This document shows positions 2,751 to 55,018 of a stretch of DNA of 64,000 nucleotides, one piece after another. Origin of the DNA: a phage. The stretch is taken from NCBI GenBank assembly GCA_033648345.1, contig GCA_033648345.1_4121.1. One strand, 5' to 3'. Below the pieces are notes generated by a model. The model made no database searches. It was not told where the DNA came from and was given only the letters and a program-made list of their open reading frames with translations. The first letter of the stretch is position 1, and each line of letters starts with the position of its first letter. Position numbers and translations under genes: made by a program.

Positions 2751-4898
2751 GTGCTAAACATTACACGTATATCAATGAGGAACTTCTTTTCATTTGGCAA
2801 TGCACCACAAGTAATTGATTTGTCTGGTGCTGATATATCGTTAGTTCTTGGTCAAAACAATGATGCAGTTATTGAAGGTGGTGATAGTTCCGGTCGCCGT
2901 AATGGTGTTGGTAAAAGTGCCATCATTCAAGGTTTAGTTTTTGGTTTGTTTGGAAAAAGTATTGGTAACGATATCAAAATTCCAAACTTAGTTAATAAAA
3001 CTAATGCTAAAAACTGTGAAGTATCTGTTGAGTTCGAGAAAGATGGTGTACAATATCTCGTCGAGCGTGGGAGAAGTCCCACGTATTTCAACTTTATTAC
3101 ATTAGGTAAAGATAATAAGGTCGAAGATGAGTCAAGAGGGGAGAAGAAAGATACACAAGAAGATCTAAACGAGATTCTTGGGATTTCTCAACTACTATTT
3201 GAACATATTGTAGTACTTAATGCTAACGTAGAGCCGTTTCTTGCATTATCATCACAGAAACAACGTGATATGATTGAGGAACTTCTGGGTATCACACAAT
3301 TAACAGAGAAAGCTGAACTATTAAAGGATATGTATAAAGATTCTAAACGTTTAGCTGAACAAGAAAAGTTCAAAATTGAAACTGTGGCTGCAAGTAATGA
3401 ACGTATTCAAAAAAGTATTGAATCATTACAAGAACAAGCTAACCAATTTGAGATTGATAAAAATAATAGAGTATCTAAGTTGACTGAAGAATTGAATATC
3501 TACAAAACTTTAGACTTCAACGATCTCTATGATTTGGCAGAAGTGAAAGAGAAAGCTCTTATTCATAATGCTGCTCGTGATCAAATAGAAAGACGTGTAC
3601 AAGAGTTAGCTTTGAAGTATGATGCATATGACCGTGAACTGGCAACAGCAAAATTAGCATTAAATGTAAGTATTGATAAGCTAAAAACTATTGATATCAG
3701 TACTGAATTAGAAAATCACAATGAGTTGGAGATATGGAAACAGTTGGAGGGTATTCTAAAAGAGAATAATAACCAAAAACGTTTCAAAGAACAAAAACTT
3801 AACGCATTAAAGGTGGCTTTAAATGGTCATGAGAGTTCGTTACGTGCTGAGGTGGACAAATTAGCAACAGTGGAGAGTAGTAAATGTCCACTTTGTATGT
3901 CCGAATTAGAACATAATGAACATACTTCGTCTATTAAAGATAAAATTCAAAATACTATTAATGAACTTCAATCGAAAATTGATAGTTCCACTTCTGAAAT
4001 TGAAACATTACTTCAGGAAATTGATAGTATTGAGATTTTTGATATGCCACCTAAGCCTGTGACATTCTATTCTACACTAACTGAAGCACAAATGCATGAG
4101 CATAAGCTTCAAGAACTTATTAAAAAGAGTGAAGAAGAGCAAATTAACATCTATGCTAATGAACTTATGTCATCATATGAAGAACTGAACGCACATGTTC
4201 TTCAAGAAGTACCAGATACATTGAATAAATCTGAAGTAAAAGAGTTAGAAATGACAGTAACTTCATTATCACAGCAATTAGATCGTGAATTGAAAACTAC
4301 TAACACATTTATTGGACAAATTAATACACTTACGACCGATTCATTAGTACCAATCGACTATAGTGACTATAATAACCTTGATAAGATGGCAAATCACCAA
4401 GATTTCTTGGTTAAATTGTTGTTAAACAAGGATTCTTATGTCCGTAAGCGTATTATTGAACAAAACATTTCGTATCTGAATACACGTCTTCAATATTACA
4501 TTGATATGTGTGGTTCTGAACATAATGTTGTGTTCTTGAATGATTTGAGTGTAGAAATTGAGAAAAGTGGTCAGTACTTTGACTATAAACAGCTTAGTCG
4601 TGGTGAGCGTACAAGGGTAAACATTGCTTTATCTTGTGCTTTCCGTGATACATATGAGTCATTGTATCAAAGTATCAATATTCTTATCATTGATGAGATG
4701 ATTGACCAAGGTCTTGATTCAAGTGGTGTTCTTCGCGTGTGGTCTATCTTCCAAGATATGGCTGCTGTGCGTGGTAAGAATGTATATGCCATTTCTCACA
4801 GAGAAGAATTGCTTTCTAAGACTGAGAAAATCCTAAAAGTAGTTAAAGAGGATGGTTTCAGTACTGTTGAGTATACAACTCTTGATGATGTATTCTAA
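2751..4898 (+). CDS. 46: recombination endonuclease subunit gp46 (Rad50/SbcC-like ATPase)
   Basis: N-terminal P-loop GRRNGVGKS, long coiled-coil middle, C-terminal signature region (LSRGERTR, LIIDEM); GTG start supported by alignment to T4 gp46 N-terminus. Confidence 0.85.
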   Translation: MLNITRISMRNFFSFGNAPQVIDLSGADISLVLGQNNDAVIEGGDSSGRRNGVGKSAIIQGLVFGLFGKSIGNDIKIPNLVNKTNAKNCEVSVEFEKDGVQYLVERGRSPTYFNFITLGKDNKVEDESRGEKKDTQEDLNEILGISQLLFEHIVVLNANVEPFLALSSQKQRDMIEELLGITQLTEKAELLKDMYKDSKRLAEQEKFKIETVAASNERIQKSIESLQEQANQFEIDKNNRVSKLTEELNIYKTLDFNDLYDLAEVKEKALIHNAARDQIERRVQELALKYDAYDRELATAKLALNVSIDKLKTIDISTELENHNELEIWKQLEGILKENNNQKRFKEQKLNALKVALNGHESSLRAEVDKLATVESSKCPLCMSELEHNEHTSSIKDKIQNTINELQSKIDSSTSEIETLLQEIDSIEIFDMPPKPVTFYSTLTEAQMHEHKLQELIKKSEEEQINIYANELMSSYEELNAHVLQEVPDTLNKSEVKELEMTVTSLSQQLDRELKTTNTFIGQINTLTTDSLVPIDYSDYNNLDKMANHQDFLVKLLLNKDSYVRKRIIEQNISYLNTRLQYYIDMCGSEHNVVFLNDLSVEIEKSGQYFDYKQLSRGERTRVNIALSCAFRDTYESLYQSINILIIDEMIDQGLDSSGVLRVWSIFQDMAAVRGKNVYAISHREELLSKTEKILKVVKEDGFSTVEYTTLDDVF

Positions 4899-50707: not shown

Positions 50708-53026
50708 ATGATTAACGTAACCAAGCGTAATGGAAAAAAAGAACCGTTATCTTTGGATAAGATCCATCAAATTTTATTTTTTGCTGCCGAAGGGCTGAGT
50801 GGTGTATCTGTTTCCGAAATTGAAATTCGTGCACAACTTCAATTCTTTGAAGGTATTGAAACCAATACTATTCATGATATTCTGATTAAATCAGCAGCAG
50901 AACTTATTTCTGAAGATACACCAAACTACCAATACGTTGCTGGTCGCTTACTAAATTATAGTATCCGTAAGCAAGTGTATGGCGACTATGACCCTATCAA
51001 ATACACTGCACATCTACAAGAAATGGTAGATACAAAAATCTATGATCCAGAAATTCTTGAGAAATACACACTTCAAGAAATTGAAGAGCTTGGACGTTAC
51101 ATCAAACATAAACGTGATGATAAATTCACTTATGTTGCTATGCGTCAGTGGGAAGGAAAGTATCTATATAAGAATCGCGTAACTAAGAAAATCTACGAAA
51201 CTCCACAAATGGCATATATGACCATTGCAGCAATCATCTTTATGGAGTATGATCGCTCTGTACGTATGTCTTATGTTAAGAAGTTTTATGATGCTGTTAG
51301 TAACTTTGATATCAGTCTCCCGACTCCTATCATGGCGGGTCTACGTACCAATACACGTCAGTTTAGTTCTTGTGTAGTACTAAACGTTGGAGATAGTCTA
51401 GATAGTATTGGTTCTTCTAACCACGCTATCCTACGTTATATTTCCCGCAAAGCTGGACTTGGTATCAATATGGGCCGCATTCGTGCTCTGGACTCCGAGA
51501 TTCGTTCAGGTGATGCAGTACACACTGGTTTGATTCCTTTCATTGCATCAACTGCTAAGACCGTTAAAAGCTGCTCTCAAGGTGGTGTGCGTGGTGGTGC
51601 AGCAACCGTCCACTTCCCATTGTGGCATTTGGAATTTGACAATCTTGTAGTACTGAAAAATAACAAAGGTACTGAGTTCAACCGTGTTCGACAACTTGAC
51701 TATTGTTTCCAAGTGAACAAAACACTATATCAACGTTTAGTGGATGGCAAGAATATTACATTCTTTAGTCCTAATGAAGTTCCTGGGCTATATGAAGCAT
51801 TCTGTTCTAACCAAAAAGAATTTGAAAAGCTGTACAAGAAGTATGAAGCTGATCCAAGCATTCGTAAAAAATCTGTATCTGCTGTTGAAGTATTCAGTAC
51901 TCTAATGACTGAGCGTGCAGAAACTGGTCGTATCTATATTCAAAACATTGACCATGCAAACACACACTCAACCTTTATTGAATCAATTGCACCAATTGAA
52001 CAATCCAACTTGTGTCAAGAAATCGCACTACCATCTGTGCCATTTGATGATATTAATACTGGCGAAGGTTTGATTAGTCTATGTACTTTGAGTGCAATCA
52101 ACTGGGGTAACTTTGATCGTCCAGAAGATATGGAAACTGCATGTGATCTTTCTGTACGTGCTCTTGATTCTCTATTGGATTATCAAGACTACCCAGTAGT
52201 TCATGCTGACCGTGCAACTAAAATGTATCGCCCATTAGGTGTTGGTATAATTAACTTTGCATACTTCCTTGCTAAACGTGGTTTGCGTTACAATGAAGCT
52301 GCATTGGAAACAGTTAACGAGTGGGCTGAAGCATGGTCTTATTATCTAATTAAATCTTCTGTACAGCTTGCTAAAGAGAAAGGTAAGTGTGAAGGTTTTG
52401 ACACACTAAAATATGCTAAAGGTATTCTACCAATTGATACCTATAAAGAAGATATTGATGCGTTGGTATCTCCTGAACTAAAACAAGATTGGGAAACATT
52501 GCGTCAGGATATCAAACAATATGGTATTCGTAACGCAACAACTATGGCACTGATGCCAGCAGAAACTAGTGCACAAATCAGTAACAGTACTAATGGTATT
52601 GAGAAACCTCGTTCACTTGTAACCAAGAAACTATCTAAAGATGGTATTCTTAAACAAGTCGTTCCTGAAATCAATAAGTTGAAAAACAAATATGATTTAC
52701 TATGGGATCAGAAAGATAACATCGGTTATCTACAAATCTGTGGTGTTCTTCAGAAATACATTGACCAAAGTATTAGTGTGAATACCAGTTACAATCCAGC
52801 ACACTTCCCTGATGGTAAGTTGCCAATGTCAACACTACTAACTGAACTAATGTATGCATACAAAGTTGGTTTGAAAAATCTGTACTATCATAATACTAAT
52901 GATGGTTCTGATGAAGTTGATGTTGAGAAAGTACTAAAAGAAGCTGCAAAACCAGAATCAGGACAGTTTGTGTTGCCTACACTACCTGACTTAGATGAAG
53001 GTGATTGTGATAGTTGTAAGATCTAA
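50708..53026 (+). CDS. nrdA: ribonucleotide reductase large subunit NrdA (class Ia)
   Basis: N-terminal ATP-cone (VTKRNGKKEPLSLDKI), catalytic NLCQEI and C-terminal Cys pair. Confidence 0.93.
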   Translation: MINVTKRNGKKEPLSLDKIHQILFFAAEGLSGVSVSEIEIRAQLQFFEGIETNTIHDILIKSAAELISEDTPNYQYVAGRLLNYSIRKQVYGDYDPIKYTAHLQEMVDTKIYDPEILEKYTLQEIEELGRYIKHKRDDKFTYVAMRQWEGKYLYKNRVTKKIYETPQMAYMTIAAIIFMEYDRSVRMSYVKKFYDAVSNFDISLPTPIMAGLRTNTRQFSSCVVLNVGDSLDSIGSSNHAILRYISRKAGLGINMGRIRALDSEIRSGDAVHTGLIPFIASTAKTVKSCSQGGVRGGAATVHFPLWHLEFDNLVVLKNNKGTEFNRVRQLDYCFQVNKTLYQRLVDGKNITFFSPNEVPGLYEAFCSNQKEFEKLYKKYEADPSIRKKSVSAVEVFSTLMTERAETGRIYIQNIDHANTHSTFIESIAPIEQSNLCQEIALPSVPFDDINTGEGLISLCTLSAINWGNFDRPEDMETACDLSVRALDSLLDYQDYPVVHADRATKMYRPLGVGIINFAYFLAKRGLRYNEAALETVNEWAEAWSYYLIKSSVQLAKEKGKCEGFDTLKYAKGILPIDTYKEDIDALVSPELKQDWETLRQDIKQYGIRNATTMALMPAETSAQISNSTNGIEKPRSLVTKKLSKDGILKQVVPEINKLKNKYDLLWDQKDNIGYLQICGVLQKYIDQSISVNTSYNPAHFPDGKLPMSTLLTELMYAYKVGLKNLYYHNTNDGSDEVDVEKVLKEAAKPESGQFVLPTLPDLDEGDCDSCKI

Positions 53027-53030
53027 TTAA

Positions 53031-53057
53031 AGATCCCGCTTCTGCGGGATTTATTTC
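53031..53057 (+). terminator. intrinsic terminator after nrdA
   Basis: gatcccgc-ttct-gcgggat followed by TTATTT. Confidence 0.6.
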
Positions 53058-53071
53058 ATAGGAGTGATATA

Positions 53072-53845
53072 ATGAAAGTTGACTATCGTAGTCCAATAGA
53101 TATTGGATTCATAGAAGAATTTTGGGATGATCTTGATATGGATATGATTGTTCGCTATCAAAAACTCCCACAAGACTTTATAAAAAAACATTTTGATAAA
53201 ATGAACCCTAATATGTTAGCTCGATATCAAACAATGACAACTGATTTTCTTAAAGAAAAGTGGGAGTGGTTTGATAAAAATGTTATTGCACAATATGTAG
53301 TCATGCCAATGGAATTGATTATGGAAAAATGGAATGACTTCAAAGATAACTTTCTGGATACTGTTGCTAAGTATCAAAAACTAACACAAGATTTTATTCA
53401 AGACAAATGGAATGACCTTGTTGAATTTAGAGATGGTGTAATGTCGGAAATTTCCAGATACCAAAAACTAACACTTGATTTCATTAAAGATAAATGGGAT
53501 TATATTGATAAGAACTATATTTCATATTATCAAACTTTAACGGTTGATTTTATCAAAGATAATATTACTGCATTAAATGTTGCAGCAGTATCCGCATTTC
53601 AAATACTATCGGATGATATACGCTCATCGATGGGGTTAGAAGCACCAGCAAAAACTATTACGGGTAATCAAATACTCGCGTTGGACCCATGTGCCGATGG
53701 TATGGCTCGATACAATGCTCATACACCTGACAATAATACAGTTTTGACATGGAATGAACTACTTACACTACACTTGGGTTCACAAGAAGGAATTAGTGAT
53801 ATCCATTGGCTATCATATAAATTGGGTCATAAAATTAATACATAA
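53072..53845 (+). CDS. tandem-repeat protein (about six ~25-aa YQxLTxDFIxxKW repeats)
   Basis: Repeats RYQKLPQDFIKKHF / RYQTMTTDFLKEKW / KYQKLTQDFIQDKW / RYQKLTLDFIKDKW / YYQTLTVDFIKDN. Confidence 0.55.
   Translation: MKVDYRSPIDIGFIEEFWDDLDMDMIVRYQKLPQDFIKKHFDKMNPNMLARYQTMTTDFLKEKWEWFDKNVIAQYVVMPMELIMEKWNDFKDNFLDTVAKYQKLTQDFIQDKWNDLVEFRDGVMSEISRYQKLTLDFIKDKWDYIDKNYISYYQTLTVDFIKDNITALNVAAVSAFQILSDDIRSSMGLEAPAKTITGNQILALDPCADGMARYNAHTPDNNTVLTWNELLTLHLGSQEGISDIHWLSYKLGHKINT
53153..53582 (+). repeat. in-frame tandem repeat array (~75 bp units) inside CDS 53072..53845
   Basis: Periodic YQ-LT-DFI-KW at protein level. Confidence 0.5.
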
Positions 53846-53857
53846 AGGAATATATAT

Positions 53858-54982
53858 ATGTCAGTTTTCAAAATTAATGAGAAGTCTCACCTAGAAAAGA
53901 ATATGTTTTTTGATGAAAGTGTTGATATTCAACGATTTGAAAGTAACAAATACTCTGCACTTGAAAAACTAACTGAACAACAGAAAAGTTTCTTCTGGAC
54001 ACCAGGTGAAGTTGACGTATCTAAAGATAAAATTGATTTTGCTAACCTCAATGATTCTGAGAAGCATATCTTTACATCAAACTTAAAACGTCAAATCCTT
54101 CTTGATTCAGTTCAAGGTCGTGGTCCTAATCTAATGCTACTGCCATATGCATCTCTACCTGAACTTGAAAACTTTATTGAAACATGGGCGTTCTTTGAAG
54201 GTGCTATTCATAGTAAATCATATACACATATTATTCGTAACATTTATCCTAATCCATCTGAAGTTTTTGATACTATGTTGGACATTCCAGAAATCACTGA
54301 TTGTGCTGCTGATGTTTCAAAATACTATGATGACCTTGATGAACTAGGAACATTGTATCGTGCATTAGGTGAAGGCACTCATACTGTTAATGGGAAAACT
54401 ATTGAAATTAATATGTATGATCTAAAGAAAAAACTATGGTTATGTTTGAATAGTATTAACATTCTTGAAGGTGTTCGTTTTTATGCTAGTTTTGCTTGTT
54501 CATGGGCATTTGCAGAGAACAACCTCATGGAAGGTAATGCAAAGATTATTCGTCTAATTTGTCGTGATGAAAACCTTCATCTCGCAGCAACACAAATGAT
54601 TTTACGTCTTCTAAAGAAAGAAGATCCAGATATGGTAAAAATTGCCGAAGAGTGCTATGATGAAGTACTGGAAATGTTTATGTCTGCTATTCGCCAAGAA
54701 GAAGCATGGGCAGATTTCCTCTTTAAAGATGGTTCTATTATTGGATTGAACTCTGAAATTCTTAAACAGTATGTTCGCTGGATTGGTTCTAAGCGTATGA
54801 CTGCACTTGGTATCAAATGTCCATATACTGTATCCAAGAGTAACCCACTACCGTGGACTGAACACTGGGTAAGTGGTAGTTCTGTACAGGTAGCACCACA
54901 AGAAACTGAAATCAGTTCTTATATCATTGGTGGTATTGTGAATGATATCCAAGGAGATACATTCTCGCCATTTAAACTATAA
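53858..54982 (+). CDS. nrdB: ribonucleotide reductase small subunit NrdB
   Basis: Di-iron ligand motifs (FFEGAIHSKSYTHII, RDENLHL). Confidence 0.92.
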   Translation: MSVFKINEKSHLEKNMFFDESVDIQRFESNKYSALEKLTEQQKSFFWTPGEVDVSKDKIDFANLNDSEKHIFTSNLKRQILLDSVQGRGPNLMLLPYASLPELENFIETWAFFEGAIHSKSYTHIIRNIYPNPSEVFDTMLDIPEITDCAADVSKYYDDLDELGTLYRALGEGTHTVNGKTIEINMYDLKKKLWLCLNSINILEGVRFYASFACSWAFAENNLMEGNAKIIRLICRDENLHLAATQMILRLLKKEDPDMVKIAEECYDEVLEMFMSAIRQEEAWADFLFKDGSIIGLNSEILKQYVRWIGSKRMTALGIKCPYTVSKSNPLPWTEHWVSGSSVQVAPQETEISSYIIGGIVNDIQGDTFSPFKL

Positions 54983-54995
54983 AATAAAACTAACA

Positions 54996-55018
54996 GGGAT
55001 TCTATGAATCCCTTTTCT
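54996..55018 (+). terminator. intrinsic terminator after nrdB
   Basis: gggattc-tat-gaatccc followed by TTTTC. Confidence 0.6.

Follow-up and report, generated by a model that had tools for sequence, protein, structure and literature searches.

A tryptophan repeat gene, with a predicted alpha-solenoid product, between nrdA and nrdB of Rak2-like jumbo phages

The window analyzed here is a stretch of 64,000 nucleotides (nt) of phage DNA, contig GCA_033648345.1_4121.1 of GenBank assembly GCA_033648345.1. The gene of interest, designated X, is the open reading frame (ORF) for a repeat protein at 53072-53845 on the plus strand. A preliminary description made from the sequence alone had placed this ORF of 257 amino acids (aa) between nrdA and nrdB, the genes for the two ribonucleotide reductase (RNR) subunits, and the ORF call and Pfam matches of the neighbors bear this out. 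The repeat type had not been recognized, and indeed it has no curated Pfam match; it can nonetheless be named, as X belongs to the 23-residue "tryptophan repeat" family, PHROG 3532, on the basis of profile and structural matches, the link to poxviruses being structural. X is a "hypothetical protein" in every deposited genome, and is not discussed in the genome papers on phages CBB, UE-S1, fEgEco12 and LPJP1 nor in a comparative review of jumbo phages.

X forms part of the nrdA-nrdB transcription unit (Table 1). It had been described as bracketed by terminators, which does not hold: one hairpin follows nrdA, the X stop codon runs into the nrdB Shine-Dalgarno sequence, and the next hairpin comes after nrdB. 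The stem behind nrdA, annotated as a terminator in the UE-S1 record, was also listed by our terminator scan, though on the minus strand. A homolog of this hairpin is present in all relatives, those with X and those without, and it is therefore part of nrdA rather than of X. The X Shine-Dalgarno sequence is kept as GGAG or GGAT among orthologs. At the position of the nrdB Shine-Dalgarno sequence, TAAGGA or TAAAGGA is found in all X orthologs and in the phages without X, and in the window the distance from the X TAA to the nrdB ATG is 12 nt. Given the overlap between the X stop codon and the nrdB ribosome-binding site, X is presumably made together with nrdB, and the gene layout suggests co-expression of the two during infection. 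A promoter-like site in the 3′ end of X is included in Table 1 because the 3′ end of T4 mobE carries the nrdB middle promoter (PMC2790892); sigma-70-like sites are not enriched around X (8 observed, 13.8 expected). Rfam and tRNA scans of the X region gave nothing significant. At 32.3%, the GC content of X is a little below that of the window (36.3 ± 2.7%), and its GC content at third codon positions (GC3) resembles that of the neighboring genes.

Table 1. Features of the nrdA-X-nrdB locus (nucleotide positions are those of the window; aa, residues of X)
Feature	Position	Strand	Basis
nrdA, class Ia ribonucleotide reductase large subunit, 5′ neighbor of X	50708..53026	+	772-aa ORF; Pfam ATP-cone, Ribonuc_red_lgN, Ribonuc_red_lgC, E 2.4e-120
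GC-rich hairpin ATCCCGC-TTCT-GCGGGAT then TTATTTCA; terminator- or attenuator-like, directly 3′ of nrdA	53033..53050	+	read from sequence
Shine-Dalgarno AGGAG of X, 7 nt 5′ of ATG	53060..53064	+	sequence
Gene X	53072..53845	+	ATG-to-TAA ORF, 257 aa; TAA stop 53843-53845; PHROG 3532 match
Repeat array, aa 6-189	53087..53638	+	motif positions, family profile, AlphaFold helix pairs
Repeat units: aa 6-28 (partial, N-terminal cap), 29-51, 52-74, 75-100, 101-129, 130-152, 153-175, 176-189 (degenerate cap)			
Non-repeat C-terminal domain, aa 190-257 (68 residues)	53639..53842	+	conservation, model pLDDT 82-94
Sigma-70-like promoter-like site TTGGCT-18-TAAAAT inside X 3′ end, 23 nt 5′ of nrdB ATG	53806..53835	+	9/12 consensus matches
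nrdB Shine-Dalgarno AAGGAA, sharing last base of X stop codon	53845..53850	+	sequence
nrdB, ribonucleotide reductase small subunit, 3′ neighbor of X	53858..54982	+	374-aa ORF; Pfam Ribonuc_red_sm, E 2.9e-48
Hairpin and T-run after nrdB; actual 3′ terminator-like end of X-nrdB unit	54995..55013	+	terminator scan, 8-bp stem, both strands

The preliminary description gave X about six repeats of some 25 residues. Its tandem repetition is firmly supported: a three-unit profile built from other family members only scores 201.5 bits against X (E 5e-65), against 9.1 bits for the best of 200 shuffled X proteins. The count and length needed revision, to seven to eight units with a basic period of 23 aa, two of them stretched to 26 and 29 aa by insertions of 3 and 6 residues, followed by 68 non-repeat residues at the end. 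The unit consensus is YQKLTxDFIKDKWxxhDKNxISx, and its leading motif [YF]Q.[LM][TSP]..F[IL] is found at aa 29, 52, 101, 130 and 153, with divergent copies at 75 and 176. Tandem Repeats Finder detected no tandem repeats in the DNA of X; the repeats are at the protein level only, which argues that the units are old.

We then placed these units within the larger family. Residues 2-229 of X match phrog_3532 (E 2.9e-36), considered here with PHROGs 27418 and 11920; these are phage families without annotation, and PHROG membership says nothing on the function of X. Scans with Pfam and NCBIfam gave no match past threshold, and sequence searches of the PDB with the ortholog profile and with a canonical family member gave nothing significant. 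The best PADLOC match (E 0.017) was not significant either, and no dedicated anti-defense library was searched. A profile search of 1.84 billion representatives found 1472 proteins at E≤1e-3, 206 of them at E≤1e-10. In the best 149 representatives the 23-residue spacing is dominant (525 observations, the next commonest spacing having 33) and the unit consensus is YQKLSEDFIEKHxDKLDWxxISx. X has threonine where the family has serine at position 5, and in five of its eight units the core tryptophan stands at position 13 (as "KW"), the usual family position being 18. Among the units of the 149 representatives, 39 have tryptophan at position 13 only (W13), 448 at position 18 only (W18) and one at both; this near-exclusive use suggests two alternative fillings of one core position.

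Among phage genomes, tblastn found gp045 of Bacillus phage BpSp, annotated "tryptophan repeat gene family protein" (7e-12), gp559 of Bacillus phage G and 13 places in Listeria phage LPJP1. The phage G paper gives the same family name to gp556 and gp560 (PMC12484599). In LPJP1 (L005:4993-10983) at least seven adjacent genes belong to the family, each with 3-11 profile matches and all annotated as hypothetical; none of these has a C-terminal domain of the X type. No second repeat paralog was detected among the window ORFs with the repeat profile. When the repeat profile was used to look for the named entomopoxvirus members, only unnamed metagenome proteins of at most 121 aa were found. One entomopoxvirus family member, AMV254, carries an F-box (PMC7728225), and a short metagenome member, P0276, has a Pfam F-box-like match.

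The structure of X was modeled with AlphaFold2 from an alignment of 14 sequences, namely six orthologs and eight short metagenome proteins that have in common with X its last repeats and its C-terminal domain; an alignment of 134 sequences including short repeat proteins was dropped because MAFFT misaligned the C-terminal domain. The model has a predicted local distance difference test score (pLDDT) of 92.8 and a predicted template modeling score (pTM) of 0.82. Each unit is modeled as two short helices, and residues 11-187 as an alpha-solenoid of about eight helix pairs, running from H11-16/H23-29 to H158-164/H170-176 with pLDDT about 90-96. Foldseek search of BFVD, a library of predicted structures of viral proteins, gave as best matches AMV029 (E 2.7e-10, template modeling (TM) score 0.61, 24% identity) and an MySEV protein of the "tryptophan repeat gene family" (6.2e-10); MSV027 (1.3e-9), MSV205 (2.1e-9), Pithovirus proteins and phage G gp558-563 were also matched. 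The entomopoxvirus matches have probability 1.0, TM about 0.6 and 19-26% identity. The predicted fold class is clearly a short-helix alpha-solenoid, nearest to LRV in period. Against the PDB, Foldseek gave the X model no match below E 0.78, and we know of no solved structure for any tryptophan repeat family member. The profile search and structure prediction that the preliminary description called for thus brought a family and a fold; the family is not a well-characterized one, its function being unassigned. Weak Foldseek matches, with E 2e-4 to 2e-3 and 13-15% identity, were also obtained to other proteins of Rak2-like phages: A0A1L2CVN3 of CBB (264 aa), K4FBA1 of GAP32 (254 aa) and A0A2C9CY59 of fHe-Yen9-04 (264 aa). 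With a length of about 260 aa, these could represent a second helical-repeat paralog that has diverged very far.

The C-terminal domain is the most conserved part of X, with 36 of its 68 positions invariant among 12 orthologs, including the single cysteine of X. Its motifs are P-C-x-[DES]-G-x-x-R-Y, [TS]-W-N-x-L-L and D-[IV]-x-W-L (in X, PCxDG..RY, TWNELL and DIHWL), and its predicted elements form a compact unit in the order strand-helix-helix-strand-helix-helix. The domain has no detectable relative in Pfam, and a profile of it found none among PDB sequences; its PHROG match is phrog_27418 (aa 178-249, E 4.6e-6). Among 5.8 billion proteins the profile matched ten, and the whole domain is present in five of the 149 family representatives, with part of it in a sixth (P0102). 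In that protein search, in the 149 representatives and in L022, a metagenome contig described below, this domain is seen only downstream of 23-aa repeats. In 39 of the 149 the C-terminus is instead another domain, some 110 aa long and weakly DUF7666-like. From these sequences the family looks modular, a repeat array joined to exchangeable C-terminal heads.

The X architecture, repeats followed by PCxxG/TWNELL/DIxWL, recurs in four tandem paralogs at 1-3607 of L022 (a 6.1-kb Logan contig of SRR19753085), the fourth of them frameshifted in an A8 run near position 3455; an L022 paralog also matches phrog_3532. Two kb downstream of this array (L022:5471-5827) is a 118-aa protein matching phrog_2428 and Acb2_Tad1_hairpin (26.0 bits, cut-off 27). 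A gene of the same architecture in L020 adjoins SMC_N-like and thioredoxin-like genes.

By its sequence, the source phage is an Asteriusvirus, of the 121Q/PBECO4 group of Rak2-like jumbo phages. We found X orthologs in the identical nrdA-X-nrdB slot of 16 distinct phages from at least three genera. Seven are near-identical Escherichia phages, Ecwhy_1, BF17, EC.P1, fEgEco12, WPEC3, WPEC5 and Turkey3, to which the window is about 99.3-99.4% identical in the X region. UE-S1 and JNE01 follow at 82-83% aa identity, and then, at 64-69%, EJP2, Yersinia phages fHe-Yen9-03 and fHe-Yen9-04 (Eneladusvirus), Pectobacterium phage CBB (Mimasvirus), and three unclassified phages, XaC1 and XbC2 of Xanthomonas and Kaldavass of Erwinia. 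Ortholog length is 257 aa throughout except in EJP2 (254), so that the size of X stays within 254-257 aa even where the adjoining nrdA fragment is down to 69% aa identity. As the flanking NrdA and NrdB fragments become less alike, the identity of X declines in parallel. Across ortholog pairs the ratio of nonsynonymous to synonymous substitution (dN/dS) is 0.04-0.16, with dS saturated, and by this measure X is under strong purifying selection.

Presence and absence between nrdA and nrdB had been proposed as a check, and the relatives do differ. While the seven closest have X, three others with flanks of 98.5-99% identity (vB_Ec-M-J, TH47 and CMSTMSU) do not, and the indel between phages that are otherwise 99% identical is clean, at about 790 bp. 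X is also absent from the whole 121Q/PBECO4 group, Turkey5, A4, the Salmonella 7t3 group, Erwinia phage Hallingskeid and Serratia phage BF (of the same genus as fHe-Yen9-04), so that each clade has members without it. No copy of X was found elsewhere in the genomes lacking it, by tblastn that matched 25 records in all.

Turkey5 settles the direction of change. Its 94-nt nrdA-nrdB spacer (L007:824-923) retains the X leader and ribosome-binding site, the latter as GAGATGATATAATA; the X start is mutated to ATA (GATGATATAATA, where the window has GGAGTGATATAATG and JNE01 has GGAGATATAATG); and about 30 nt from the very end of X are still present (ATAAATTTTGTAATAAATGATTAAACATACATAA against ATAAATTGGGTCATAAAATTAATACATAA). 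These remnants meet at an ATAA microhomology. The similarity of the tail was equaled by 23 of 2000 shuffles. The spacer is a deletion scar from secondary loss of X, not an ancestral empty site. A shorter ortholog, P0005 of L018 (a Rak2-like phage contig, Logan SRR21707705), has 169 aa, with an in-register internal deletion of five units.

The nrd region of T-even phages is a hotspot of endonuclease insertion, with mobE lying between nrdA and nrdB of T4 (PMC2790892). The preliminary description had spoken of T4-like phages and of a position often held by mobile or accessory genes; in the strict sense the phage is not T4-like, while the hotspot is confirmed by mobE and by insertions in Rak2-like phages. 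Cronobacter phage GAP32 has in the same slot a 245-aa endonuclease, GAP32_299 (L017:21148-21885), which matches Pfam MUG113/T5orf172 at 23.9 bits and DUF723 below threshold; its closest relative, CBB, has X there. X was rejected as a relative of GAP32_299 (BLASTP E 2.1). In L018 (1041-7020) both nrd genes are interrupted, nrdA by a NUMOD4/HNH_3 gene and nrdB by a DUF723 gene. The annotation of fHe-Yen9-04 (LT960551.1, about 223358-225220) divides nrdB into g298 and g300, with the hypothetical g299 between them, suggesting that nrdB, just downstream of the X ortholog, has taken up an intron or endonuclease gene.

X itself is most likely not a mobile or homing element. It was described as inserted, which, if taken to mean recent or mobile, is not supported in view of its same-slot orthologs across genera, its flank-matched divergence, purifying selection, the Turkey5 scar and the absence of a nuclease domain. 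Accordingly, we regard as extremely improbable the reading in which a selfish cassette, either X itself or one accompanying it, invaded the nrdA-nrdB interval in the manner of T4 mobE. It would account for the clean indel and for the choice of a known hotspot (T4 mobE, PMC2790892; GAP32_299; the HNH and DUF723 insertions of L018), and the slightly low GC content could be counted in its favor. No nuclease domain (HNH, GIY-YIG, LAGLIDADG or similar) was found in X with Pfam, PHROG or NCBIfam, however, and X is predicted to fold as a helical solenoid; its GC3 does not stand out from that of the neighbors, and the gene has neither flanking repeats nor target-site duplications. The distribution of X is sporadic, but the Turkey5 deletion and the stepwise divergence of orthologs and flanks across genera speak against invasion as its cause.

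On balance we favor the reading that X is a genuine gene of Rak2-like jumbo phages, probably held in place by vertical descent: an old resident, dispensable and repeatedly lost. Its product would be an alpha-solenoid of about eight 23-residue two-helix units in the W13 register, capped by the conserved 68-residue domain. Alpha-solenoids generally act by protein binding. Pfam, NCBIfam and PADLOC gave no enzyme domain in X, and lacking a catalytic domain the protein is most likely, by analogy, a non-enzymatic protein-binding adaptor, in which the solenoid surface and the C-terminal domain may each bind a partner, of the host or of the phage. The analogy is with the F-box of AMV254 (PMC7728225), the F-box-like match of P0276 and the apparent exchange of C-terminal domains in the family. 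X does not seem to be a virion protein, its CBB ortholog being missing from the mass-spectrometry table of the CBB virion. A role as DNA mimic is not suggested, the protein being only mildly acidic (pI 4.7-5.4).

Several points weigh against this reading. The distribution of X requires at least five or six independent losses. The empty or the X allele may instead have spread through homologous recombination when relatives co-infect: the empty site of vB_Ec-M-J looks like that of 121Q, and the presence of X co-segregates with two nrdB sites located 70-76 nt downstream. When the surroundings of the vB_Ec-M-J indel were checked for patch recombination, most differences were specific to the window, and only those two sites co-segregated with X. 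In the X tree the window, UE-S1 and JNE01 are about equidistant, whereas the nrdA fragment places the window and UE-S1 close together; this incongruence implies some mosaicism. As to structure, a first AlphaFold2 run with the six orthologs reached a pLDDT of only 59.5, and that model was excluded from the fold search, so that the confident model is the one from 14 sequences. The adaptor role draws only on fold class and analogy, and the constant position in the nrd operon could instead reflect a role specific to RNR.

Such a role can be put as an RNR-associated scaffold or regulator that binds phage NrdA, NrdB or both, or links them to the replication or deoxyribonucleoside triphosphate (dNTP)-synthesizing machinery. 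The invariant slot, in which the X stop and the nrdB Shine-Dalgarno sequence overlap in each of the 16 phages across about 30% NrdA divergence, is what one would expect of it, as are the strong constraint on the length and sequence of X and the absence of the CBB ortholog, CBB_304, from the CBB virion mass-spectrometry table (which lists CBB_298, CBB_299 and then CBB_320). We nevertheless hold it to be quite unlikely, considering that vB_Ec-M-J, with identical NrdA and NrdB fragments, does without X, that the proteins of the same architecture in L022 and L020 are not beside nrd genes, and that the family members of phages G, BpSp and LPJP1 are not nrd-linked. Nor is X similar to the RNR accessory proteins NrdI, NrdH and YfaE: it has a single cysteine, and no flavodoxin, glutaredoxin or 2Fe-2S ferredoxin domain was found in it with Pfam or NCBIfam. 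A bolder version, which we consider very unlikely, makes X a partner dedicated to the class Ia RNR of the phage, or a shield of the phage dNTP supply against nucleotide-depletion defenses of the host, kept since the Rak2-like common ancestor; if true, this would be the first function for the tryptophan repeat family and its C-terminal domain. X could also be a host-directed effector, for anti-defense or host takeover, whose solenoid sequesters a host protein and which is needed on some hosts only and so is easily lost. This would suit a gene that is patchy in every clade yet under strong selection where kept, and a family given to multi-copy tandem arrays typical of arms races (at least seven adjacent genes in LPJP1, gp556-563 in phage G, four copies in L022), with an entomopoxvirus branch that is also multi-copy and has one F-box member (PMC7728225). 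The L022 array even lies 2 kb from the Acb2_Tad1_hairpin match, but this match is below threshold and from one contig only; X has no match to a PADLOC or other anti-defense family, and in Rak2-like phages it is single-copy and conservative, with no diversifying pattern. We judge an effector role unlikely.

Under the favored reading of an old, dispensable resident, X shows that the occupants of the nrd hotspot are not all selfish; beyond that, it is an ordinary accessory gene. Through X, a "hypothetical protein" of Escherichia coli jumbo phages is tied to a repeat family of very large size, for which Pfam has no model and which spans bacterial jumbo phages, bacteria, and giant and insect DNA viruses (pithoviruses and entomopoxviruses). 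The family gains a confident predicted structure, an alpha-solenoid of two-helix 23-residue units, and a rare C-terminal domain is defined. Natural pairs with and without X at about 99% local identity (fEgEco12 or Ecwhy_1 against vB_Ec-M-J) are a ready-made experiment on the function of the family. What is new about X itself is minor, comprising the W13 register, the previously undescribed C-terminal domain, the model, and an ancestral slot with repeated loss; it is otherwise of a known, uncharacterized kind.

Among known systems, T4 mobE and the slot endonucleases resemble X in position, in the preceding hairpin, in an upstream gene whose 3′ end carries nrdB expression signals, and in their patchy occurrence among relatives (PMC2790892). 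Unlike mobE, X is without a nuclease domain and appears to be inherited by descent with loss, not by invasion. The likeness to LRV (PDB 1lrv) and to the HEAT-like/PBS-lyase solenoids is in fold class only, with neither a sequence-profile match nor a close structural superposition. The entomopoxvirus tryptophan repeat family (MSV027, MSV205, AMV029) is the same kind of protein as X, with tandem 23-residue hQxLSxxFIxxhxDxhxW..IS units that form short helix pairs, no enzymatic domain and an unassigned function. The poxvirus members and those of jumbo phages of Gram-positive bacteria form multigene families, whereas X is single-copy and fixed in position, and it is set apart from the family by its W13 register, its threonine at position 5 and its own 68-residue C-terminal domain.

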